Shown: positions 1-12,498 of the stretch, one piece after another
How the letters are laid out: every line of letters begins with the position of its first letter
Numbering within the stretch: the stretch's first letter is position 1
Origin: a virus
Taxonomy: Duplodnaviria; Heunggongvirae; Uroviricota; Caudoviricetes
Virus record (IMG/VR): IMGVR_UViG_2896595138_000006
DNA length: 12,498 nucleotides
Strand: one strand, 5' to 3'
The notes under the pieces: generated by a model
The model's input: the letters and a program-made list of their open reading frames with translations, nothing else
Told to the model about the DNA's origin: nothing
Database searches by the model: none
Made by a program: the position numbers and the translations under genes

Positions 1-795
1 GTGCCGGAACTGACCCGCAGGACCACGAGAGGCAAAAAAGAGAGACAGAGGCCCGAAGTCGAAAATGTGGCGGCGGCATGGTACCAGGTGAAAATCAGCC
101 AGAATCTGGCCGCCAACAGTGGGCTGATTGATGCCAATCCGGCTATGAATGTGCGTAAGGCGTTTCCCTCACCTGTAAAAAAACATATGCCAACAATCCG
201 CCCCGAACAGCTGCCGGAGCTTATGCAGGCTTTATCAGTATCGGCAACAGAACGGCAGACCAGATTACTGATTGAATGGCAGTTACTGACCGTAACCCGT
301 CCCGCCGAAGCGTCATCAACGCGGTGGGATGAAATCAACCTGGACGCGAAGCAATGGACGATACCTGCCGGACGCATGAAGATGCGCAGGGATCACGTTA
401 TCCCGCTTTCCGGTCAGGCTATGGCGGTGCTGGAGGCCATGAAACCAATCAGCCACCACCGCAATTACGTTTTCCCAAGTCTGAAAGACCCACAGCAGCC
501 GATGAACAGCCAGACCGCTAACGCAGCATTGCGGCGTATGGGATTCGCTGGCGTGCTGGTGTCTCATGGATTACGCGCCATATTCAGCACAGCAGCGAAC
601 GAGGAAGGATTCGAGCCGGACGTAATAGAGGCGGCACTTGCCCACGTCGACACCAACGAAGTTAGACGGGCATACAACCGGAGCAACTACATAGAAAAAC
701 GCATCGTGCTGATGCGCTGGTGGGGCGAATTTGTCGAGGCTGCGGCGACGGGCGTAACCCTCGCCAGTGGTAAAAGGGGTATCCGAGCCGTGTAG
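1..795 (+). CDS. int: Tyrosine integrase, P4-like family; C-terminal 264 codons only (5' end of the gene lies upstream of the window)
   Basis: Frame is open from base 1 to TAG at 793-795. Translation shows the catalytic-domain pattern of phage tyrosine recombinases (WDEINLD..WTIPAGRMKMRRDHVIPL, HGLRAIFSTAANE, LAHVDTNEVRRAYNRSNY). Recognised as P4/CP4-type integrase from memory; no search run. Confidence 0.9.
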   Translation: MPELTRRTTRGKKERQRPEVENVAAAWYQVKISQNLAANSGLIDANPAMNVRKAFPSPVKKHMPTIRPEQLPELMQALSVSATERQTRLLIEWQLLTVTRPAEASSTRWDEINLDAKQWTIPAGRMKMRRDHVIPLSGQAMAVLEAMKPISHHRNYVFPSLKDPQQPMNSQTANAALRRMGFAGVLVSHGLRAIFSTAANEEGFEPDVIEAALAHVDTNEVRRAYNRSNYIEKRIVLMRWWGEFVEAAATGVTLASGKRGIRAV

Positions 796-802
796 CTGTA
801 CA

Positions 803-837
803 GAAAACCAGTAAAAACTACGAAAACCATGTAAAAC
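803..837 (+). repeat. Two 16-bp direct repeats (GAAAACCAGTAAAAAC at 803-818, GAAAACCATGTAAAAC at 822-837), 19-bp period, immediately downstream of int
   Basis: Read directly; 15/16 identity. Lies just upstream of a TATAAT hexamer at 844-849. Function unknown (candidate protein-binding sites). Confidence 0.6.
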
Positions 838-1526: not shown

Positions 1527-2952
1527 TAATGCCGATCAGTTAAGGATCAGTTGACCGATCCAGTGGCTGTGTAAGAATCCGGAAACGCTCACTTGTTTCC
1601 GGATTTTTTTATGCACATTGGACAGGCTCTTGATCTGGTATCCCGTTACGATTCTCTGCGTAACCCACTGACTTCTCTGGGGGATTACCTCGACCCCGAA
1701 CTCATCTCTCGTTGCCTTGCCGAATCAGGTACTGTAACGCTACGCAAGCGCCGTCTTCCCCTCGAAATGATGGTCTGGTGTATTGTTGGCATGGCGCTTG
1801 AGCGTAAAGAACCTCTTCACCAGATTGTGAATCGCCTGGACATCATGCTGCCGGGCAATCGCCCCTTCGTTGCCCCCAGTGCCGTTATTCAGGCCCGCCA
1901 GCGCCTGGGAAGTGAGGCTGTCCGCCGCGTGTTCACGAAAACAGCTCAGCTCTGGCATAACGCCACGCCGCATCCGCACTGGTGCGGCCTGACCCTGCTG
2001 GCCATCGATGGTGTGTTCTGGCGCACACCGGATACACCAGAGAACGATGCAGCCTTCCCCCGCCAGACACATGCCGGGAACCCGGCGCTCTACCCGCAGG
2101 TCAAAATGGTCTGCCAGATGGAACTGACCAGCCATCTGCTGACGGCTGCAGCCTTCGGCACGATGAAGAACAGCGAAAATGAGCTTGCTGAGCAACTTAT
2201 AGAACAAACCGGCGATAACACTCTGACGTTAATGGATAAAGGTTATTACTCACTGGGACTGTTAAATGCCTGGAGCCTGGCGGGAGAACACCGCCACTGG
2301 ATGATACCTCTCAGAAAGGGAGCGCAATATGAAGAGCTCAGAAAACTGGGTAAAGGCGATCATCTGGTGAAGCTGAAAACCAGCCCGCAGGCACGAAAAA
2401 AGTGGCCGGGACTGGGAAATGAAGTGACAGCCCGCCTGCTGACCGTGACGCGCAAAGGAAAAGTCTGCCATCTGCTGACGTCGATGACGGACGCCATGCG
2501 CTTCCCCGGAGGAGAAATGGCGGATCTGTACAGTCATCGCTGGGAAATCGAACTGGGATACAGGGAGATAAAACAGACGATGCAACTGAGCAGGCTGACG
2601 CTGAGAAGTAAAAAGCCGGAGCTTGTGGAGCAAGAGCTGTGGGGTGTCTTACTGGCTTATAATCTGGTGAGATATCAGATGATTAAAATGGCGGAACATC
2701 TGAAAGGTTACTGGCCGAATCAACTGAGTTTCTCAGAATCATGCGGAATGGTGATGAGAATGCTGATGACATTGCAGGGCGCTTCACCGGGACGTATACC
2801 GGAGCTGATGCGCGATCTTGCAAGTATGGGACAACTTGTGAAATTACCGACGAGAAGGGGAAGGGCCTTCCCGAGAGTGGTAAAGGAGAGGCCCTGGAAA
2901 TACCCCACAGCCCCGAAAAAGAGCCAGTCAGTTGCTTAACTGACTGGCATTA
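1527..2952 (+). mobile_element. Insertion sequence IS4, complete copy (1426 bp)
   Basis: Terminal inverted repeats TAATGCCGATCAGTTAAG (1527-1544) and CTTAACTGACTGGCATTA (2935-2952), 16/18 match. The 1426-bp length and the 442-aa transposase agree with IS4 as remembered. Flanked by a 13-bp direct duplication. Confidence 0.92.
1611..2939 (+). CDS. insG: IS4 transposase (DDE family)
   Basis: 442 aa starting [16 protein letters not shown]. Matches the E. coli IS4 transposase essentially throughout, from memory. A hairpin plus T run (1577-1610) sits immediately before the ATG. Confidence 0.92.
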
Positions 2953-4344: not shown

Positions 4345-4409
4345 GTGTCCGTAAACCTACCCATACCCGCATTATGGCGGGGCGTAACGGGGGAGCCTTT
4401 GCGCTCGCT

Positions 4410-4502
4410 GGTTTCTTTGCTGCCAGTCTGTCAACCCTGTTACGTCCCGCCACCATGTTTGACAGCGTGCTGGCGAGACTCCTTACATCAAGCAAAGGAG
4501 CC
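4410..4502 (+). promoter_or_regulatory. Unit-2 leader element: anti-Shine-Dalgarno segment (4410-4421) complementary to the Shine-Dalgarno region (4491-4502) of the second icd-like ORF
   Basis: GGTTTCTTTGCT can pair with AGCAAAGGAGCC over 12 positions (10 Watson-Crick plus 2 G-U), covering the Shine-Dalgarno sequence AAAGGAG (4494-4500). Confidence 0.35.
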
Positions 4503-4508
4503 TTTCAC

Positions 4509-4682
4509 ATGGCTGTATCCGCACGCCCTTACTTTGTCTGGCGCTTTATGCAGTGCCTGACAGACAGCATTGCAATATTCACCGTTACCGCAGCCACTGA
4601 ACGCGAAGCCCGCGCGCAGCTGCCGCACGCACATCTGATTTTTGTCGCCCGTATTCGCCAGGGGGAAACCTATGCACAATAA
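4509..4682 (+). CDS. Small Icd-like/Ash-family protein, paralogue of 4035-4223 (57 aa); a longer in-frame form could begin at ATG 4374
   Basis: Shine-Dalgarno AAAGGAG 8 nt upstream. Shares WRF, TEREAR and ARIRQGE motifs with the upstream copy, with DNA-level similarity across the unit. Confidence 0.55.
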   Translation: MAVSARPYFVWRFMQCLTDSIAIFTVTAATEREARAQLPHAHLIFVARIRQGETYAQ

Positions 4683-4893
4683 AACCACACCGGACGCAGC
4701 CGCCGCCGCACTCACTACGCTGATGCACGCGCTTATTGATATTGAATGCACAGCAGAGCTTGCACGAAAGGAAGAACGGGAAGAATACACATTGTTCGCC
4801 CTGGAATGTATCCGATACATCGCAACGCGGTCGCTGAATGACGCTAAAAATATTCTTGTTGCTGATTGTGAAAATGGGGGGTGCCCCTATTAA
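4672..4893 (+). CDS. Hypothetical protein (73 aa)
   Basis: Start overlaps the stop of the preceding ORF (ATGCACAATAA), suggesting translational coupling. GGGGGAA lies upstream. Stop is 13 bp from the end of the IS110-family recombinase gene, so the 3' end may have been altered by the insertion. Confidence 0.45.
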   Translation: MHNKTTPDAAAAALTTLMHALIDIECTAELARKEEREEYTLFALECIRYIATRSLNDAKNILVADCENGGCPY

Positions 4894-4906: not shown

Positions 4907-6103
4907 TTATGACCCCTGCGGGGTATAAAAAGTCCCGTCGCGCATCATGGCGAACAGAACGTCGCAGCGTCGTCTCGCCAGGGCGATAAGCGCCTGATTG
5001 TGTCGTTTTCCCTGACTCATTTTGCGGGTGTAGTAAGCCCTGGAGAGCGGATCCCTGAGCGCGGCGAAGGCCAACAGGAACAACGCCCGTTTGAGAGCTT
5101 TATTACCCCGTCGCGAGGGATGCTCACCGCGTATTGACGAGCCGGATCGCCGAGTTACCGGCGCAAGGCCAGCATAAGCAGCGAGATGTGCGGCAGAGGC
5201 GAAGGCGCGGCAGGCGACCTCGGTGAGGAGTCTGGCTGCGGTCCTGACACCGACTCCGGGCATACTGGTCAGGACCGGGTAAAGAGGGTGAGCAAGAACT
5301 CGCTGTTCTACCTCAAGCGCCACCTCGTCTCTTTGCTTACGCAGCGTGATGAGCTGGAGTGCCAGACGTGGCAGTACTACGGCAGCGGCATTCGTGCCGG
5401 GAACGACGACGGTTTGTTCGGCCAGTGCCTGAGCTATGTCTGCTGCAAGGCGTTTACCCAGACGAGGCGCAAGTTTGCAGAGCTGGGCTGCCAGCTTCTT
5501 CTCACCCAGCGAAGCGAGTTTTTCTGGTGAGGGATATCGCTGGAGAAGATCGAGTACCGCCGGGTGCTCAAGTCTCGGACCGAGAACGCGCTCCAGTGCC
5601 GGATGTATCTGGGTCAGAAGGCCGCGGAGACGGTTGCTGGCCTGCGTTGTCTGTGCGGCAAGATCATCATCGAAGCCGCAGAGCATGGAGAGTTCGGCGA
5701 TTTGCTCGTCAGCCAGTTTCAGCGTGCGTAGCGCGTGAGGCAGGGTACGGGCAGCTTCGGCAATGATGGCAGCGTCACGAGCATCAGTTTTAGCTTCACC
5801 GGCGTGTAAGTCGGCTATGCGGCGCATGGCCAGTCCAGGGAGGTATCCGACAAGGACTCCTTCTGAGCGGGCAACGGCGACAGGTAACGCACCGATGGTA
5901 GCTGGCTGATCAACAACCAGCAGTATCTGACCATGTTGTTTCAGGTCAGATATTAGCGACCTGAGTTTGTTTTCGTCGTTGGGTAATGCTTTATCGAACA
6001 GGCGTTTACCTGAACGATTAATGGCAACAGCGTGATGCGTATCTTTACCGACATCAACGCCGATAAAGACCTGGACGGATTCGTAATCGCTGGATTCGGT
6101 CAT
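4907..6103 (-). CDS. IS110-family transposase/recombinase (N-terminal DEDD RuvC-like domain plus C-terminal Transposase_20 domain)
   Basis: N-terminus VFIGVDVGKDTHHAVAI and C-terminal LTSMPGVGVRTAARLL...AAYAGLAPVTRRSGSS are the hallmark motifs of IS110-family enzymes. Shine-Dalgarno AGGGAG lies 5 nt before the ATG on the minus strand. Confidence 0.9.
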   Translation of the reverse strand: MTESSDYESVQVFIGVDVGKDTHHAVAINRSGKRLFDKALPNDENKLRSLISDLKQHGQILLVVDQPATIGALPVAVARSEGVLVGYLPGLAMRRIADLHAGEAKTDARDAAIIAEAARTLPHALRTLKLADEQIAELSMLCGFDDDLAAQTTQASNRLRGLLTQIHPALERVLGPRLEHPAVLDLLQRYPSPEKLASLGEKKLAAQLCKLAPRLGKRLAADIAQALAEQTVVVPGTNAAAVVLPRLALQLITLRKQRDEVALEVEQRVLAHPLYPVLTSMPGVGVRTAARLLTEVACRAFASAAHLAAYAGLAPVTRRSGSSIRGEHPSRRGNKALKRALFLLAFAALRDPLSRAYYTRKMSQGKRHNQALIALARRRCDVLFAMMRDGTFYTPQGS

Positions 6104-6681: not shown

Positions 6682-6873
6682 GTGGAGGAACGGCGCGTAA
6701 CCTACCGTCGTGAAGGCTACGAATATGATTGCGTGATGCCTGTTTATCAGTTCGACCGTGATTTTTCTCTTGTGCAGGCCGTACCGCGTAACGTGCCCAC
6801 CAGCAGGGAGAAAGCACGCGCCAATATTCAGGAAATAAAAAAGATGCTTAACGTATTCAGGGGTAAAAAATGA
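6682..6873 (+). CDS. Hypothetical protein (63 aa, GTG start), translationally coupled to the primase gene
   Basis: Its stop overlaps the primase start (ATGA at 6870-6873). Upstream Shine-Dalgarno spacing is poor, so the start is uncertain. Confidence 0.35.
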   Translation: MEERRVTYRREGYEYDCVMPVYQFDRDFSLVQAVPRNVPTSREKARANIQEIKKMLNVFRGKK

Positions 6874-8624
6874 AACTGGCACCGAACGTAAAAAAACAGC
6901 CACGCGGAATAAAACACAAAGACACAGAGGTAATTATCTTTGCGGGTAGTGATGCCTGGGCACACGCGAAACAGTGGCAGGAACATGACGCGCGTACAGC
7001 CGGAGATAATGAGCCTCCTGTGTGGCTTGGAGAGCAGCAGCTATCCGAACTGGATAATCTGCAAATTGTGCCGGATGGCAGAAAATCAGCACGCATATAC
7101 AGAGCCGGACATCTTGAGCCTGTAATGATCAAGGCGATTGGTCAGAAGCTGGCGGCGGCAGGTGTACAGGATGCAAATTTTTATCTTGAGGGTATGCACG
7201 GCCAGGAGGTGCAGAACTGGCGCGAATATCTGGCCCGTGAACGCCAGAATCTTTCTGATGGTCTGGTCATTGAGCTTCCGGTAAAGCAAAAGGCGCAACT
7301 TTCGCAGATGGCAGACAGTGAGCGCGCACAGATGCTTGCTGGTCGATTTGATGGCGTTTGTGTGCATCCGGAAAGTGAAATCGTTCACGTATGGCGCGGC
7401 GGGATATGGTGTCCGGTCAGCACAATGGAACTGAGCCGCGAAATGGTGGCGGTTTATTCAGAACACGGGGCCACATTCAGCAAGCGGGCAATTAATAACG
7501 CCGTTGAAGCGTTAAAAGTTATTGCTGACCCGATGGGCGAGCCGTCCAGTGATTTGCTACCGTTCACTAATGGTGTGCTTAACCTGAAAACGGGGGAATT
7601 TTCCCCGCACACGCCGGAGAACTGGATCACCACGCACAACGGCATTGAGTACACGCCACCAGCACCAGGGGAGAATATCCGCGACAACGCGCCAAACTTT
7701 CATAAATGGCTTGATCACGCAGCCGGAAAAGACCCGCGCAAGATGATGCGCATATGTGCCGCGCTTTACATGATTATGGCGAACCGGTACGACTGGCAGA
7801 TGTTTATTGAGGCCACCGGAGACGGCGGGAGCGGTAAAAGTACATTCACACACATAGCCAGCCTTCTGGCAGGGAAACAGAACACGGTAAGCGCTGAAAT
7901 GACATCGCTTGATGATGCTGGTGGACGTGCGCAGGTTGTCGGGAGTCGTCTTATCGTCCTGGCTGACCAGCCGAAATATACAGGCGAAGGAACGGGCATC
8001 AAGAAAATCACGGGCGGCGACCCCGTGGAAATTAACCCGAAATATGAAAAGCGTTTCACGGCGGTAATCAGGGCGGTGGTGCTGGCGACCGACAACAACC
8101 CGATGATATTCACCGAACGGGCCGGAGGTGTGGCACGTCGTCGCGTGATTTTCCGTTTCGACAATATCGTCAGTGAGGCCGAAAAAGACAGGGAGCTACC
8201 GGAAAAGATTGCGGCTGAAATCCCCGTTATTATCCGCCGATTGCTGGCGAACTTTACCGACCCTGAGAAGGCACGGGCTTTACTACTGGAACAGCGTGAC
8301 GGTGATGAAGCACTGGCAATAAAGCAACAGACGGATCCGGTTATTGAGTTTTGCCAGTTCCTGAATTTTCTGGAGGAAGCGCGCGGCCTGATGATGGGTG
8401 GCGGTGGTGATTCAGTGAAGTACACGACCAGGAACAGCCTTTACCGCGTCTATCTGGCGTTTATGGCATACGCAGGCAGGAGCAAACCGCTAAACGTAAA
8501 TGACTTTGGCAAGGCTATGAAGCCTGCCGCAAAAGTTTACGGACATGAATATATTACGCGGAAAGTTAAGGGGGTAACGCAGACTAACGCAATAACAACA
8601 GACGAGTGCGACGCGTTTTTATAA
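6870..8624 (+). CDS. Primase/helicase, phage P4 alpha-like (D5-N-type plus SF3 helicase domain)
   Basis: 584 aa. Walker A motif ATGDGGSGKSTF and the surrounding pattern (IVLADQP, VLATDNNP) match the P4-family primase C-terminal helicase domain as remembered. The N-terminal 200 aa are consistent with a Toprim-like domain. Followed by the iteron cluster. Confidence 0.88.
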   Translation: MKLAPNVKKQPRGIKHKDTEVIIFAGSDAWAHAKQWQEHDARTAGDNEPPVWLGEQQLSELDNLQIVPDGRKSARIYRAGHLEPVMIKAIGQKLAAAGVQDANFYLEGMHGQEVQNWREYLARERQNLSDGLVIELPVKQKAQLSQMADSERAQMLAGRFDGVCVHPESEIVHVWRGGIWCPVSTMELSREMVAVYSEHGATFSKRAINNAVEALKVIADPMGEPSSDLLPFTNGVLNLKTGEFSPHTPENWITTHNGIEYTPPAPGENIRDNAPNFHKWLDHAAGKDPRKMMRICAALYMIMANRYDWQMFIEATGDGGSGKSTFTHIASLLAGKQNTVSAEMTSLDDAGGRAQVVGSRLIVLADQPKYTGEGTGIKKITGGDPVEINPKYEKRFTAVIRAVVLATDNNPMIFTERAGGVARRRVIFRFDNIVSEAEKDRELPEKIAAEIPVIIRRLLANFTDPEKARALLLEQRDGDEALAIKQQTDPVIEFCQFLNFLEEARGLMMGGGGDSVKYTTRNSLYRVYLAFMAYAGRSKPLNVNDFGKAMKPAAKVYGHEYITRKVKGVTQTNAITTDECDAFL

Positions 8625-9176: not shown

Positions 9177-9587
9177 ATGACAGCACAGATAGCAGCTTAC
9201 GGACGGTTGGTGGACGACCCGCAGGTAAAACAGACCAGCAAGGGCACACCGATGACGCTGGCGCGTATGGCGGTATCGCTGCCATGCAGCCAGGCACAGG
9301 ACGGACAGGCGACGTTATGGCTATCGGTGATGGCATTTGGTAAGCAGGCCGACTTCCTGGCTAAACATCAAAAAGGCGACGTTGCCAGCGTATCCGGCAC
9401 GATGCAGGTCAGCCAGTGGACCGGACAGAACGGGGAAACGCGGCAGGGTTATCAGGTTATTGCCGACAGCGTAATCAGTGCCCGAGCGGCACGCCCTGGC
9501 GGGAACAGACGCAAAACCACAGGCACACAGGGTAATCAGCCACCAGCGGGAGACGATGACCCCTACGGTGATGATATTCCGTTCTGA
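9177..9587 (+). CDS. ssb: Single-stranded DNA-binding protein (SSB), phage/plasmid type
   Basis: 136 aa. OB-fold pattern (G.L..DP.V.......P..LA......WLSVMAFGKQADFLAKH.KGD...V.G......W....G..R.G) followed by a Gly/Gln-rich linker and the acidic tail DDDPYGDDIPF characteristic of SSB. Shine-Dalgarno GGAGAGGTGG upstream. Confidence 0.85.
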   Translation: MTAQIAAYGRLVDDPQVKQTSKGTPMTLARMAVSLPCSQAQDGQATLWLSVMAFGKQADFLAKHQKGDVASVSGTMQVSQWTGQNGETRQGYQVIADSVISARAARPGGNRRKTTGTQGNQPPAGDDDPYGDDIPF

Positions 9588-9595
9588 ACGCACAG

Positions 9596-9617
9596 GCCGG
9601 AGAAAATCCGGCTTTTT
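9596..9617 (+). terminator. Rho-independent terminator after ssb (GCCGGA-gaaaa-TCCGGC followed by T5)
   Basis: Stem 9596-9601/9607-9612, T run 9613-9617. Confidence 0.6.
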
Positions 9618-9623
9618 GTACCC

Positions 9624-9667
9624 AAAAAAAGCCCGATAAGTACAGGAGGAAGCTTATCGGGCTTTTG
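9624..9667. terminator. Second, probably bidirectional terminator (A7, 11-bp perfect stem AGCCCGATAAG / CTTATCGGGCT, T4)
   Basis: Stem 9630-9640/9653-9663 with a 12-nt loop, an A run on the 5' side and a T run on the 3' side. Confidence 0.5.
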
Positions 9668-9740
9668 CTTACGAGGTTAACAGCATGGTGACTACTGTTG
9701 TCGTAAATCATTTCATAATTTGCAATGCAACTCAATTCTA

Positions 9741-9797
9741 TTGCACAAAATGCAACTATGATTATAATTATAACTGGATGTACATCCAGTTATAATT
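9741..9797 (+). promoter_or_regulatory. Promoter of the head module (TTGCAC 9741-9746, 16-bp spacer, TATAAT 9763-9768) overlapped by a 32-bp perfect palindrome operator (9766-9797)
   Basis: AATTATAACTGGATGTACATCCAGTTATAATT is perfectly self-complementary about the 9781/9782 centre and overlaps the -10 hexamer and start region. Direct repeats TGCAACT lie at 9725-9731 and 9751-9757. Confidence 0.5.
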
Positions 9798-9824
9798 TTT
9801 TAAGTCGAAAAGGAATTTCTGACT

Positions 9825-10031
9825 ATGACAGAAGAGAAAAAAGGCGGGGTGACAGTTTACATAAGCCCCGATATCGTGGAGGCGCTCAAGGAACGCCACC
9901 AGCAGAACGTAAAAGCGGGCATTGCGGCAGGACTTGATCCGCTGGCGATGGTTGAGCCGTCAACAGGCTGGCAGGTACGCGCCTATTTACGTGCGGCGCT
10001 TGGCATGAATCAGACTCATGAGGGTGAATAA
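9825..10031 (+). CDS. Hypothetical protein (68 aa), first gene of the head module
   Basis: AAGGA lies 10 nt upstream. Stop overlaps the capsid gene start (TAATG), suggesting translational coupling. No recognisable motif. Confidence 0.5.
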   Translation: MTEEKKGGVTVYISPDIVEALKERHQQNVKAGIAAGLDPLAMVEPSTGWQVRAYLRAALGMNQTHEGE

Positions 10032-11086
10032 TGGCAGACAAAGCAACGGCACTTAACACTAACCAGCTTTTCGCGTACCTGAATCGCGGGGATATCCCGG
10101 AATTTAAATTCAGTCCGCTGTTTACCACGCTGTTTTTCCCGAAAGTAGCAACCTTCAACACACAAGATGTCATGCTGGATACCCTGGACATTGAAGAAGT
10201 CACCATGTCGGCGTTTTGTTCGCCTGTGGTGGGTAGCCAGGTTCAGCGTGATAAAGGGTACGAAACAAGCACTATCCGCCCTGGCTACATGAAACCCAAA
10301 CACGAAATCGATCCATCAAAAACCATCATGCGCATGGCTGGAGAAGATCCGGCACTGCTTAACGACCCCACCTGGCGACGTATGCGCCTCATTACTGGCA
10401 ACATGCGCCGCCAGATAAACGCCATTAAAGCGCGTGTGGAATGGCTGGCAGTGAATGCGGTCACGACCGGAAAAAACATCATTGAAGGCGAAGGCATAGA
10501 ACGCTATGAAATCGACTGGAATATGCCGGCAAACTGCATTGTCCATCAGGGGCCAGGAAAAAAATGGTCTGAGCAGAATAAAGAGACGCATGATCCGACA
10601 GATGACATCGAGCTATACGCCGAACAGGCCAGCTGCCCCGCCAACGTCATGATTATGGGCGCTGACGTATGGCGCACCTTACGTAGCTTTAAAAAATTCC
10701 GCGAGCTGTACGATCTTTCCCGTGGTTCAGAATCCGCCGCAGAGCTGGCGTGTAAAAACCTGGGCGAAGTGGTGAGCTTTAAAGGCTATCTGGGTGATCT
10801 GGCCCTTATCGTCTATTCCGGCAAATACACCGACAGCGACGGCACCGAAAAATATTTCCTTGAGCCTGATTTGCTTGTCCTGGGCAACACCAGCAATAAA
10901 GGTCTGGTGGCCTATGGCGCGATTATGGATCCGGAAGCGGTAAGAACGGGCGCAACGCAAAACATGTACTACCCGAAAAACTGGATTGAGAGCGGCGATC
11001 CGGCGATTGAGTACGTGCAGACGCACAGCGCACCGCAGCCGGTTCCGGCAGATATCCGCAAATTTGTTACTGTGAAAATTGGTTAA
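10031..11086 (+). CDS. Major capsid protein, lambda gpE-like (Phage_cap_E family)
   Basis: 351 aa. Multiple blocks align by eye with lambda gpE: FKFSPLFTTLFF, PGYMKPKHE, HDPTDDIELYA, LRSFKKF, LGEVVSFKGYLGDLALIVYSGKY, LVLGNTSNKGLVAYGAIMD, YYPKNWIESGDPAIEY and QTHSAPQP. Shine-Dalgarno GAGGGTGA upstream. Confidence 0.9.
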   Translation: MADKATALNTNQLFAYLNRGDIPEFKFSPLFTTLFFPKVATFNTQDVMLDTLDIEEVTMSAFCSPVVGSQVQRDKGYETSTIRPGYMKPKHEIDPSKTIMRMAGEDPALLNDPTWRRMRLITGNMRRQINAIKARVEWLAVNAVTTGKNIIEGEGIERYEIDWNMPANCIVHQGPGKKWSEQNKETHDPTDDIELYAEQASCPANVMIMGADVWRTLRSFKKFRELYDLSRGSESAAELACKNLGEVVSFKGYLGDLALIVYSGKYTDSDGTEKYFLEPDLLVLGNTSNKGLVAYGAIMDPEAVRTGATQNMYYPKNWIESGDPAIEYVQTHSAPQPVPADIRKFVTVKIG

Positions 11087-11097
11087 CGGGAGATTCT

Positions 11098-11401
11098 ATG
11101 GGCACTCCATATGTTGAGTTATATGCAGGCACACAGCAGGTTGCCACGACGCTGGTACATTTTTCCGCTGATGCTGGCGGACAATGGCGAGTTTAAGGCG
11201 TGGGATGGTCAGGAATCTGGCAAGGCTGTTTATCTGACGGCGTACCCCGTGGACACGTCAAAGCAGAAATCAGCACAGTGTTACAAGACGGGGATATTTA
11301 ATATCGCCGCCGTTAACTGGCCCGAGAGCGTCGACACCGACGCGAAAAAATGCGCCGCTTTTGCGGGTTCTGGCGTATCCGTTCAGCCACTGGTGCGATA
11401 A
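11098..11401 (+). pseudogene. Head decoration protein, lambda gpD / phage 21 SHP-like, with an apparent +1 frameshift in a T5 run (11160-11164)
   Basis: Shine-Dalgarno GGGAG lies 6 nt before ATG 11098, and that frame stops at 11194-11196. The gpD-like sequence continues in the +1 frame to TAA 11399-11401 (PLMLADNGEFKAWDG...YKTGIF...WPESVDTDAKKCAAFAGSG versus lambda PLMLDTSSRKLVAWDG...YKSGTF...WPEAASDETKKRTAFAGTA). Deleting one T from the T5 run gives a continuous 100-aa gpD-like ORF. Confidence 0.6.
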
Positions 11402-11413
11402 GCAGGGGGAACG

Positions 11414-11827
11414 ATGGCAATCAATGAAGCTATCATGGCGCTACCGCTGGCGAGTAAATTTAAAGCCGAAGCGCGGGCAATGGCGGACAGAGGTTTATCA
11501 ACCTACGAGGCTATATATCAACTTAACAAACTGGAAGAGCAGGACAAGCCGCGCACTGATGCGATTATGGCGCTTCATGAATCTGACGACTATCAGCCGC
11601 TGTTACGTGCAATGGCAAACGTGCCATGTATTAGCGTCGATAATGCCCGGGAAATCCTGAACATGACCATAGAGCAGGAACGCCCGAAGGTTGCGCCGGA
11701 GCTTACCGCAGCCTTTGAAAACTTTATGGACATGCACAGCCCGCAGGCCGTAAGCCCTGGCATGGCATACGATGGCAGATATCAGGGTGATGACGGCGAA
11801 ATCGATCGCATACTGAAAACCATCTGA
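11414..11827 (+). CDS. Hypothetical acidic protein (137 aa) in the head module
   Basis: Shine-Dalgarno AGGGGGAA upstream of the ATG. Followed directly by a strong terminator. No recognisable motif; predicted largely helical. Confidence 0.6.
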   Translation: MAINEAIMALPLASKFKAEARAMADRGLSTYEAIYQLNKLEEQDKPRTDAIMALHESDDYQPLLRAMANVPCISVDNAREILNMTIEQERPKVAPELTAAFENFMDMHSPQAVSPGMAYDGRYQGDDGEIDRILKTI

Positions 11828-11833
11828 GAAAAG

Positions 11834-11857
11834 GCCGGAGAAATCCGGCTTTTTTTT
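11834..11857 (+). terminator. Rho-independent terminator (GCCGGA-gaaa-TCCGGC followed by T8)
   Basis: Stem 11834-11839/11844-11849, T run 11850-11857. The stem sequence is nearly identical to the terminator at 9596-9617. Confidence 0.65.
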
Positions 11858-11932
11858 GCGGGTCCTTCCGGTGGGGTGGCCTGCCACGGGGCGGGAGCGG
11901 CGCAGAATTTCACTATTTATGAAAATTTTTCG

Positions 11933-12035
11933 GAAACCATGTCCGGTTTCTCTGAAGGTTAACCATTTGAAAAATATAGAAATGCGCTTTCTGCGAACCG
12001 GACATGCGCAAAAATTGAACACTCAAACCGGACAT
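11933..12035. promoter_or_regulatory. Three copies of an 11-bp motif AAACCGGACAT (one inverted) upstream of the last gene
   Basis: ATGTCCGGTTT at 11939-11949 (inverted, inside the GAAACC-N6-GGTTTC dyad 11933-11950), GAACCGGACAT at 11995-12005, AAACCGGACAT at 12025-12035. The last two are 30 bp apart. Confidence 0.4.
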
Positions 12036-12113
12036 ATATGCCGCGTTTCATAAAGTTGTTCGCAAGATGCATGTTTAAAACGCATGAGGGGAGATTTTTG
12101 GGCGAGGTGAACA

Positions 12114-12498
12114 GTGGCTACTCAGACTGAAGTTGCCAGGCATTTGAGTCTGACCGATCGCCAGCTTCGCAGATTACAGAAATTGTTCCCCCATCACTAT
12201 GGAAACCATAACCATGACCGACGCCGAACTACTGAAAGTAATCCGCCGTATTACCGGAATCTGTCAGGCAACAGGCAAACAGGTGGCCACGCAGCCGGAC
12301 AGCGTCACCGCTGAAAATTACGCGCGTGTGGTGGCTGAGGTGATGCGCCGTGACGGTATTGAGCTTAACGGCGTGGATATGCGCAACATACGAACAAGAG
12401 TCCTTGAGTTGCTGGCATATCGTCGCCGTTCTCAACAACGGAGGGAGAGCGCGAAAAATACTTACCAGTGGAGGAAGCCGGAGCACTTACGGCGGTAA
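12114..12498 (+). CDS. Putative HTH-type DNA-binding protein (possibly small-terminase-like or a regulator), apparently frameshifted at a C5 run (12188-12192); alternatively an independent ORF 12214-12498
   Basis: GAGG lies 6 nt before GTG 12114. The N-terminus ATQTEVARHLSLTDRQLRRLQKL looks like a helix-turn-helix, but that frame then becomes low-complexity and stops at 12314. The +1 frame (12199-12498) reads as a normal protein and ends exactly at the window end. Deleting one C from the C5 run fuses the two into a ~128-aa ORF. Confidence 0.4.

Follow-up and report, generated by a model that had tools for sequence, protein, structure and literature searches.

A candidate Nu3-like scaffolding protein and a constant capsid-gene partner in the four-gene capsid block of an Escherichia coli phage satellite

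Here, we examined a 12,498-nucleotide stretch of viral DNA (IMG/VR record IMGVR_UViG_2896595138_000006; hereafter, the window) and, within it, a block of four genes that includes homologs of phage capsid and head decoration genes. Judged by its sequence, the window is an EcCICFT073-type cos PICI, a satellite of E. coli phages. It carries the PICI markers integrase, AlpA, DUF4222, D5-type primase and SSB, and the presence of int, alpA, the primase with its downstream module and a cos site, the size of ~10-15 kb and the gene order are all those of the EcCICFT073 type, a match limited by the rpp gene, of which only a remnant is left in the window. Because the gene order matches that of CFT073, the first and last genes of the block can be equated with c1498 and c1501, and the two genes between them with c1499 (capsid) and c1500 (decoration). 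The four-gene block is thus part of a known element, and our contribution is an improved annotation.

The block is a discrete unit, with its own promoter and its own terminator (Table 1). We propose that it would be expressed as one transcription unit, running from the promoter and LexA-type box through the 68-aa gene, the gpE-like gene, the gpD-like gene (frameshifted here) and the 137-aa gene to the terminator. A sequence-only reading of this DNA had singled out the two flanking genes as candidate assembly or size-determination factors. The ORFs themselves are present exactly as it described them, with Shine-Dalgarno-like sequences (AAAGGAA 10 nt before the ATG of the 68-aa gene and GGGGGA 4 nt before that of the 137-aa gene) and with coupling, the stop codon of the 68-aa gene overlapping the start of the capsid gene (TAATG at 10029-10033). 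The E-like and D-like genes that it had placed between them are both there, but the frame of the gpD-like gene is broken in the window. The statement that neither flanking protein has a recognisable motif holds for Pfam and NCBIfam but not for PHROGs, in which the 137-aa protein does have a match, to the C-terminal end of the lambda-type head protease/scaffold.

Table 1. Features of the capsid block and its borders (window coordinates)
Feature	Position	Strand	Identification or basis
Intrinsic terminator after the SSB gene	9596..9617	+	GCCGGA-GAAAA-TCCGGC followed by T5; read from sequence, inverted repeats
Second hairpin	9627-9666		With the 9596-9617 terminator, delimits the block upstream
Promoter/operator region	9740..9797	+	Sequence reading and inverted repeats
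68-aa protein	9825..10031	+	c1498 homolog; phrog_3255 (function unknown); pI 5.6
gpE-type major capsid protein	10031..11086	+	c1499 homolog; Pfam Phage_cap_E 1.5e-48
gpD-type head decoration gene, pseudogene here	11098..11401	+	c1500 homolog; alignment with CFT073 and FDAARGOS_943
137-aa putative stand-alone Nu3-like scaffolding protein	11414..11827	+	c1501 homolog; phrog_1999
Intrinsic terminator closing the block	11834..11857	+	GCCGGA-GAAA-TCCGGC followed by T8; stem also flagged on the minus strand
cos site of the island	11886..11933	+	Aligns to the lambda left end; adjoins the block downstream, outside it

The capsid protein of the island shares 43% identity with lambda gpE, and its identity to phage capsid proteins of the searched collection does not exceed about 46%, which argues that the capsid gene was not captured recently. 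The adjacent gpD-like gene has suffered a 32-bp deletion at ~11163/11164, between 15-bp direct repeats (CCGCTGATGCTGGCG), that shifts its frame; the ORF listed at 11111-11401 is an out-of-frame remnant of the gene, and the Pfam HDPD match falls on the downstream frame only. An intact gpD-like gene of 111 aa is present in CFT073 and FDAARGOS_943, and among 84 related loci the lesion is common to the window and a single other locus (L008). With its broken decoration gene and two IS elements, the window copy may be non-functional.

Both flanking ORFs are real genes, given that they are intact in nearly all related loci (80 of 82 for the 68-aa gene and 82 of 84 for the 137-aa gene) and evolve under purifying selection (dN/dS of 0.22 and 0.26, respectively). 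The same pattern extends to the entire block: across the 84 loci, dN/dS ranges from 0.10 to 0.27 for the four genes, each of which is intact in at least 94% of the loci, and block-matching DNA was detected in 1363 of 5426 complete E. coli genomes, that is, about a quarter. These observations, along with the conservation of the capsid-start overlap, the promoter and the operators, and with the divergence of the capsid protein from its phage counterparts, argue against the possibility that the block is a relic of captured head genes or a backup copy, used when the island disrupts a head gene of its helper, as in helper-embedded PICIs. Such an origin would fit the dispensability of the block in the laboratory (see below), the broken D gene of the window copy, the splitting of the capsid gene in a few of the 84 loci, the lack of the 137-aa gene in some lineages, and the existence of helper-embedded islands that reside inside helper head genes and carry the same block (PMC10111431). 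On balance, we consider it unlikely. In Salmonella and Edwardsiella islands, the trio of 68-aa, E and D genes is retained without the 137-aa gene, so that a cognate scaffold is not obligatory.

Upstream of the block, an inverted repeat, ATTGCA-N5-TGCAAC (9740-9756), covers a weak -35 element, TTGCAC (9741-9746), and is followed by a perfect -10 element, TATAAT (9763-9768), and by a 32-bp perfect palindrome (9766-9797), the core of which, AACTGGATGTACATCCAGTT (9772-9791), is a LexA-type CTG-N10-CAG box. The heterology index of this box, calculated with a matrix built from LexA sites, is 4.6, the best for any 20-mer in the window. In 77 of 78 loci, the box occupies position -53/-54 relative to the ATG, and a search of 752 kb yielded no stray LexA-type sites besides a second recurrent position. 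The interpretation of the palindrome as an RNA hairpin or terminator was rejected because changes in the flanking pairs are not compensated (for example, G-A in 14 of 42 sequences) while the halves CTGGAT and ATCCAG are invariant, and because the perfect -10 element overlaps the left arm of the palindrome. Through this predicted LexA-type box, the block probably responds to the SOS signal.

The first gene after this conserved, operator-rich promoter encodes the 68-aa protein. The one-base overlap between its stop codon and the capsid start recurs in CFT073, FDAARGOS_943 and three further loci (L006, L088 and L090), and the TAATG junction is found in every lineage seen, including the islands that lack the 137-aa gene. 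The 68-aa protein is identified here as the partner that invariably accompanies the capsid gene of these satellites. Its AlphaFold2 model (pLDDT 77.6) consists of a strand (residues 9-13) and two helices (residues 15-34 and 47-58), the order of elements in ribbon-helix-helix proteins, with a non-canonical inter-helix loop of 12 residues; residues 4-23 also produce sub-threshold matches to RHH_1 and BrnA. No homolog with a known function was identified, no Pfam or NCBIfam family was matched, and both the fold searches and the tblastn search of the phage collection came back empty. Given the strand-helix-helix pattern, the most likely reading, which we advance tentatively, is that of a small DNA-binding protein of the ribbon-helix-helix type that regulates the block; a role as a capsid-assembly cofactor is a possible but more doubtful alternative. 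A comparison of 68-aa alleles with operator variants revealed no signal of co-evolution, the allele class (at least 90% vs ~66% identity) being independent of the operator. When the two flanking ORFs were compared directly with lambda W (also 68 aa), FI (which follows E in lambda), FII, Nu1, B, D and E, no similarity was detected, and a W-like or FI-like identity was rejected on these grounds. The PADLOC search for defence systems returned no match for any protein of the block.

Sequence comparisons show that the 137-aa protein is a stand-alone homolog of the C-terminal module common to lambda gpC and the nested Nu3. In phrog_53 (head maturation protease), it aligns with profile positions 474-566 of 583 (E 1e-9) and, in the reverse direction, the last 100 residues of lambda gpC/Nu3 match the satellite family phrog_1999 (E 4e-27) as well as phrog_8399, annotated as head scaffolding protein. 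In hhalign comparisons, the satellite profile aligns with a Nu3-like protein whose gene immediately precedes D and E genes (probability 96.6%, E 5e-10), an intermediate that itself matches residues 353-424 of lambda gpC (E 2e-15), and with residues 415-488 of a CFT073 prophage gpC (probability 93.6%, E 2e-7). The homology of the scaffold module was also detected with phmmer, at E 7.7e-5, in a search of 1.8 billion proteins, and the gpC proteins of resident E. coli lambdoid prophages are 35% identical to the 137-aa protein over 74 columns and have the FE-FM--HSP motif in common with it. Against lambda Nu3 alone, hhalign gives weak E values of about 0.01-0.02, and the link to Nu3 depends on profiles and intermediate sequences. 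A tblastn search of the phage collection with the 137-aa protein produced a single match, to the gpC C-terminus of phage 204576.

The internal organization of the protein points in the same direction. It comprises two helical repeats of ~40 aa (residues 4-43 and 47-88) and a FENFMDMHSPQAV motif, and its C-terminal helix, IDRILKTI, is invariant even in a homolog with 38% identity. The internal repeat reaches a score of 38 (shuffle mean 18.9 +/- 3.7), and repeat 2 scores 41 against the lambda repeat, a value that 1 of 2000 shuffles attained; the alignment is collinear, and repeat 1 alone shows no significant likeness to the lambda repeat. The proposal that this acidic, helical protein is a scaffold-like candidate is supported by its homology to the gpC/Nu3 scaffolding module, apparent from the PHROG matches in both directions and from hhalign. 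Its pI is 4.63 (4.52 for the 131-aa Nu3), and AlphaFold2 predicts an all-helical model with six helices, at moderate confidence (pLDDT 65.6). Fold searches with this model returned no match, a PDB sequence search with the family profile yielded chance matches only, and nothing was found when the profile was run against one genome for each species. Many entries of the 137-aa family bear the NCBI name "Phage head-tail connector protein", and an adaptor of the gp6/gp15 type, linking filled heads with tails, would likewise be small and helical. However, seven members of the family match no Pfam family, connectors included, at E values up to 10, no NCBIfam model matches the protein, it has no similarity to lambda W or FII, and the PHROG and hhalign results indicate the Nu3/gpC C-terminus. 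A connector function is, in our opinion, very improbable, and the widespread database label is corrected here.

The experiments published on the sister island EcCICFT073 bear on the role of the entire block. With lambda as the helper, all packaged EcCICFT073 DNA was phage-sized, and deletion of c1499 or c1500 left transfer and interference unchanged (PMC6092414). The c1501 homolog served as a marker insertion site, and islands in which cas9 or melA took the place of the whole of c1498-c1501 were still transduced (PMC10530653, PMC10460865). When the genes downstream of ori were expressed singly, only c1503 inhibited lambda (PMC6739421). The block is therefore dispensable for transfer with lambda or phi80 as the helper and is not a proven size-determination device; its conservation suggests a benefit under conditions other than those assayed.

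These results count against the idea, raised from the sequence alone, that the small proteins next to the capsid genes may redirect capsid size: the DNA of the sister island is phage-sized and the block can be replaced. In its general form, this idea holds that one or both of the 68-aa and 137-aa proteins reshape helper capsids into small heads, in the manner of P4 Sid, SaPI CpmA/CpmB or Ccm. The island is about one-quarter the size of a lambdoid genome, SaPIs possess capsid-morphogenesis proteins of ~70 aa (10.1101/2022.09.08.507074, introduction), alternative scaffolds, to which the 137-aa protein would belong as a scaffold homolog, can alter capsid size, and the island, like SaPIbov5 with its Ccm, encodes a homolog of a capsid protein. 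Against this stand the phage-sized DNA, the persistence of interference in the c1499 and c1500 deletions and the inhibition of lambda by c1503 alone. Furthermore, in searches of the PHROG, Pfam and PADLOC libraries, neither ORF matches a PHROG annotated with size redirection or any Pfam or PADLOC entry. The island cos matches the termini of phages phi458, mEp460 and cdtI, and the phages with a cos like that of the window have heads of the ClpP-capsid fusion type rather than gpE heads, so that co-assembly with a helper capsid is unlikely for the window copy. Taken together, we view the redirection of helper capsid size as improbable.

Another possibility is that the 137-aa protein is a protease-less decoy that competes with helper gpC/Nu3 for the helper capsid protein and poisons head maturation as a means of interference. 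Indeed, the protein retains the C-terminal module, including the motif common with the resident prophage gpC, and contains no protease domain; neither a Peptidase_S49 nor a Clp domain is present among the scanned proteins of the window. Nevertheless, c1503 aside, the EcCICFT073 genes downstream of ori left lambda plaquing undiminished when expressed. Interference persists in islands that carry a marker inserted in c1501, and deletion of c1503 alone restores lambda growth (PMC6739421). Moreover, the 137-aa gene is found only alongside the island's own capsid gene, never alone. We judge the decoy function to be quite improbable.

The interpretation that we favor, if by no wide measure, is that the block is a probably SOS-responsive unit in which the 137-aa protein would serve as the internal scaffold of the divergent gpE-type capsid protein that the island encodes and the 68-aa protein the constant partner of the capsid gene. 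The repeat helices and the conserved C-terminal helix of the 137-aa protein would attach to the inner face of the shell as it assembles. Without a protease of the island's own, the scaffold would then have to exit unaided or be cleaved by a gpC-type protease of the helper. A more ambitious version, which we consider distinctly unlikely, is that the block is a working shell kit that, with its natural helpers, builds satellite-encoded procapsids, perhaps of their own size, on the lambda-family portal of the helper. These helpers would include phi458-like phages, the heads of which are of the unrelated ClpP-capsid fusion type. If this were the case, the islands would be intermediate between the classical PICIs, which take the whole virion, and the capsid-forming PICIs, which take tails only. 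The earlier puzzle posed by this island was the retention of a stray capsid gene. If a scaffold is indeed encoded beside the shell and decoration proteins, the question becomes why a coherent, selected and probably SOS-controlled assembly kit persists.

Among the closest relatives of the block is that of EcCICFT073 (Fillol-Salom et al. 2018, 2019), which belongs to the same island family and carries the same four genes, c1498-c1501, with the cos site directly downstream, as in the window. Protein identity between the two islands is 91% for the 68-aa protein, 90% for the capsid protein and 88% for the 137-aa protein, and the intact CFT073 D protein is 95% identical to the in-frame part of the broken D of the window. 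The window copy differs in the frameshifted D gene, the insertions of IS4- and IS110-family elements, a different cosN and the rpp remnant. In the EcCICFT073 literature, c1498 and c1501 are without names, and the block is viewed as a dispensable "adaptable module".

More distant parallels come from satellites of other types. SaPI operon I is a LexA-controlled morphogenesis operon, and the island block is likewise a separate unit with a predicted LexA-type box; proteins of ~70 aa, a scaffold-like protein and a capsid homolog are found both among the products of the SaPIs (operon I, CpmA/CpmB and SaPIbov5 Ccm) and in the block. The two sets of proteins are, however, without sequence relationship, and whereas the SaPI proteins have been shown to make small capsids, the experiments with lambda as the helper argue against such an activity for the E. 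coli block. The cf-PICIs, such as EcCIEDL933, are also satellites with their own capsid proteins and have the int-alpA-primase backbone in common with the island, but they carry a full set of head and packaging genes (portal, protease, connectors, terminases and HNH) with an unrelated type of capsid protein, in contrast to the shell protein, decoration protein and putative scaffold of the island block.

Homology of the 137-aa protein to the lambda Nu3/gpC C-terminus (PHROG 8399 and the C-terminal part of PHROG 53) spans the last ~90 residues, and the two proteins have in common a helical repeat of ~40 aa, IM-L-E....VPGMTV--A--IL, as well as the tail motif and an amphipathic helix at the end. 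In both genomes, the gene adjoins those for gpD- and gpE-type proteins. In lambda, however, Nu3 is nested in-frame in the protease gene, upstream of D and E, whereas in the satellite, which lacks a protease, the 137-aa protein is encoded by a gene of its own after E and D. The number of repeats also differs, with one in lambda, three in the gpC of E. coli prophages, and two in the satellite protein, of which the N-terminal one is degenerate.

The 137-aa protein encoded by the last gene of the capsid block is homologous to the C-terminal module shared by the lambda head protease gpC and the scaffold Nu3, which is nested in-frame within gene C. This supports the scaffold role proposed for it in an earlier, sequence-only reading of the window. 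That reading recognised no motif in the protein because Pfam and NCBIfam contain no model for it. For these two collections the statement holds, but not for PHROGs, where the protein is a member of phrog_1999 (E 1.7e-59) and has a further match (E 1e-9) to phrog_53, 'head maturation protease', over positions 474-566 of the 583-position profile. This stretch is the C-terminus of the lambda gpC-type protease. Conversely, a search with the C-terminal 100 residues of lambda gpC hits phrog_1999 (E 4e-27) and also phrog_8399, 'head scaffolding protein'; the same residues form the C-terminus of Nu3. Few relatives came up when 1.8 billion representatives were searched exhaustively with phmmer; one is P0073, which is encoded immediately 5′ of D and E genes and matches residues 353-424 of lambda gpC (E 2e-15). 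The satellite-family profile matched P0073 (probability 96.6%, E 5e-10) as well as residues 415-488 of gpC from the lambdoid prophage resident in CFT073 (probability 93.6%, E 2e-7), and tblastn of the 137-aa protein against the phage collection gave a single match, to the corresponding C-terminal part of gpC in phage 204576.

The alignment to gpC/Nu3 is collinear, comprising a ~40-aa helical repeat, an FE-FM--HSP--V motif, and a terminal amphipathic helix. The repeat is present twice in the satellite protein, compared with once in lambda and three times in E. coli prophage gpC. In size and charge, the satellite protein (137 aa, pI 4.63) resembles the 131-aa form of Nu3 (pI 4.52), the latter length being that counted from the internal Met and that of the 131-position phrog_8399. 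Structure prediction, suggested along with the scaffold idea, yielded a helical AlphaFold2 model of moderate confidence (pLDDT 65.6), but a fold search with this model added nothing. The NCBI product name of the family, 'phage head-tail connector protein', was unsupported by any model run. The C-terminal IDRILKTI is unchanged even in a 38%-identical homologue. Scaffolds of other phages (P22 gp8, 80alpha/CpmB) bind the coat protein through C-terminal helices; given this precedent and the invariance of the sequence, the IDRILKTI helix is probably the capsid-binding end of the protein. A natural variant from E. coli (P0029, 93 aa) has cleanly lost one repeat unit in frame, with the junction AEARAMA/NVPC (break between A and N) consistent with recombination between the two repeats. 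A separate comparison hints that the Nu3-type repeat might be a general scaffold element located behind head proteases. In phage phi458 (L092), residues 237-286 of the fusion protein encoded at 13550-15508, which correspond to the ClpP-capsid linker, are weakly Nu3-repeat-like (hhalign E 0.012).

Both small ORFs were confirmed, with Shine-Dalgarno-like sequences 5′ of each and, as previously claimed, coupling of the 68-aa ORF to the capsid gene, whose start overlaps its stop (TAATG); none of the related islands examined, the Salmonella and Edwardsiella ones among them, lacks this overlap. All four genes occur in the same order in all related loci except two truncated by contig ends, a constancy to be read with the caveat that the loci (80 from a scan of viral contigs) were fetched via the 137-aa protein. 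Intact copies of the 68-aa, capsid, decoration and 137-aa genes are found in 80/82, 79/84, 81/84 and 82/84 loci, respectively, with median dN/dS of 0.22, 0.13, 0.10 and 0.26, indicating that all four are real genes under selection, and the two terminators that bracket the block mark it as a discrete unit. DNA matching window 9600-12100 is present in 1363 of the 5426 complete E. coli genomes. The CFT073 island has the same organisation as the window, with SSB followed by the capsid block and the cos site; in EcCICFT073, c1499 is the capsid gene and c1500 the decoration gene (PMC6092414), so that the adjacent 68-aa and 137-aa ORFs are the counterparts of c1498 and c1501.

Features of the island and capsid block in the window
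Feature	Coordinates	Strand	Remarks
Tyrosine integrase, partial	1-795
Second LexA-like box	794-813		AGCTGTACAGAAAACCAGTA; at integrase gene end; heterology index 7.5
AlpA-type regulator	1271-1477
IS4 element, 1426 bp	1527-2952		transposase ORF 1593-2939; inserted relative to near-identical island L008
IS110-family transposase gene	~4907-6103	-	common to L008
D5-type primase	6870-8624
SSB	9177-9587
Terminator	9596-9617
Inverted repeat	9740-9756		ATTGCA-N5-TGCAAC
-10 element	9763-9768		TATAAT
Perfect palindrome, 32 bp	9766-9797
LexA-type box	9772-9791		AACTGGATGTACATCCAGTT
68-aa ORF	9825-10031	+
gpE-like capsid gene	10031-11086	+
gpD-like gene	11098-11401	+	true start 11098
137-aa ORF	11414-11827	+
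Terminator	11834-11857
cos site	11886-11933		aligns with lambda left end; cosN = GGGCGGGAGCGG vs lambda's GGGCGGCGACCT
TerS-like rpp remnant	12114-12498		first ~24 codons left
Gene after rpp remnant	12199/12214-12498

The window's own copy looks degraded: its D gene is broken, it contains two IS elements, and of rpp just 24 codons are left. The sequence-only reading missed the frameshift in the gpD-like gene, where 32 bp have been lost between two 15-bp direct repeats CCGCTGATGCTGGCG (junction ~11163/11164); because this deletion shifts the frame, what was listed as ORF 11111-11401 is the out-of-frame rest of the gene. Among the 84 loci, the lesion is common only to the near-identical island L008; 81 of the 84 encode an intact gene, as do the islands of CFT073 and FDAARGOS_943, where the product has 111 aa. 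Window 4390-4880 is missing from L008. The island, which also encodes a DUF4222 protein, is interrupted by the IS4 element and the IS110-family transposase gene. The rpp remnant matches positions 2-25 of phrog_7289, and nothing matched the remainder of its ORF; islands of this type may have no working Rpp. The gene that follows shows 67% identity to the CFT073 gene following rppA.

The block is preceded by a promoter with a perfect -10 and a weak -35. Directly 3′ of the -10 lies the palindrome, the core of which fits the LexA box CTG-N10-CAG. With a matrix built from E. coli LexA sites, the box has a heterology index of 4.6, which falls among the values of those sites themselves (1.1-12.8); no other 20-mer in the window scores better. 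Its half-sites are invariant, whereas changes in the flanks are not compensated, a pattern that favours a protein operator over an RNA hairpin. This LexA-type operator is located 53-54 nt 5′ of the 68-aa ATG in 77 of 78 related loci; it is found in the Salmonella island L090 and missing in the divergent islands L006, L085 and L088. In 752 kb of related loci, other boxes with an index below 8 occur only 5.2-6.8 kb upstream of the block, near the int-alpA junction. There is precedent for a LexA-controlled satellite morphogenesis operon, namely, SaPI operon I (cited in PMC6092414). A second inverted repeat, ATTGCA-N5-TGCAAY, overlaps the weak -35 and is kept in all islands seen, the divergent islands and the Salmonella and Edwardsiella ones included; a dedicated regulator, either AlpA or the 68-aa protein, may bind there.

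The 68-aa gene is firmly linked to the capsid gene. The Salmonella (L090) and Edwardsiella (L088) islands contain the 68aa-E-D trio, with the same overlap and without the 137-aa gene. L088 (Edwardsiella tarda CM130058.1, 810-11120) is a helper-embedded island, located within the portal gene of a lambdoid prophage and carrying int, alpA, primase and a 70aa-E-D trio; a Nu3-like gene is missing. Straight after this island, the prophage continues with its own protease, D, E and FI genes. In E. coli (L007-L086), the 68-aa gene falls into two allele classes, with at least 90% and ~66% identity to the window, respectively, while the promoter before it and the capsid gene after it hardly change. The gene thus resembles a cassette that has been exchanged, perhaps to suit a partner that varies.

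The DNA on either side of the window cos is matched by the ends of phages phi458, mEp460 and cdtI. Instead of gpE/gpD heads, these phages have heads made of ClpP-scaffold-capsid fusions, together with a cement protein and a portal of the lambda family. Given the fusion-type heads of the cos-matched phages, it is unlikely that the window's copy co-assembles with the helper capsid protein or poisons it, which leaves as candidates a self-contained shell kit or a selected, conditionally useful spare set. In the sister island EcCICFT073, deletion of c1499 or c1500 left transfer and interference unchanged, the standard tagged island carries a tetA marker inserted in c1501, and with lambda as helper all packaged DNA was phage-sized (PMC6092414). 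When genes downstream of ori were expressed alone, only c1503 (RppA) inhibited lambda (PMC6739421). Islands in which the entire c1498-c1501 was replaced by cas9 or melA were still transduced by phi80 lacking cos, the lysates being normalised to ~1e6 TFU/ml (PMC10530653, PMC10460865). Another group notes that, among the late genes of Gram-negative PICIs, capsid genes are the most frequent and that transfer does not need them (PMC10111431). The cited EcCICFT073 and PICI literature assigns no function to c1498 or c1501. With sister-island DNA phage-sized and the block replaceable, the suggestion that the small proteins determine capsid size finds no support.

Under the most economical model, the island would encode a matched set: a gpE-type shell protein that is divergent from the phage copies, the cement protein that goes with it and, in the E. 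coli lineage, a Nu3-type scaffold of its own. All would be expressed together in a single SOS-responsive unit, the first product of which, the 68-aa protein, would be either a regulator of the set or an assembly cofactor. No phage copy is more than ~46% identical to the island capsid protein, and lambda gpE is 43% identical to it. The island lacks portal, protease and terminase, so that any island-built shells would need helper parts.

Both the element and the block are already known, and the block is dispensable in the laboratory. What is new, and sharpens without answering the question of why classical PICIs retain capsid genes, is the constant pairing of the 68-aa and capsid genes, the conserved LexA-type operator before the block, the correction of the 'connector' label of the 137-aa family, and the placement of c1501-type proteins in the Nu3 scaffold family.
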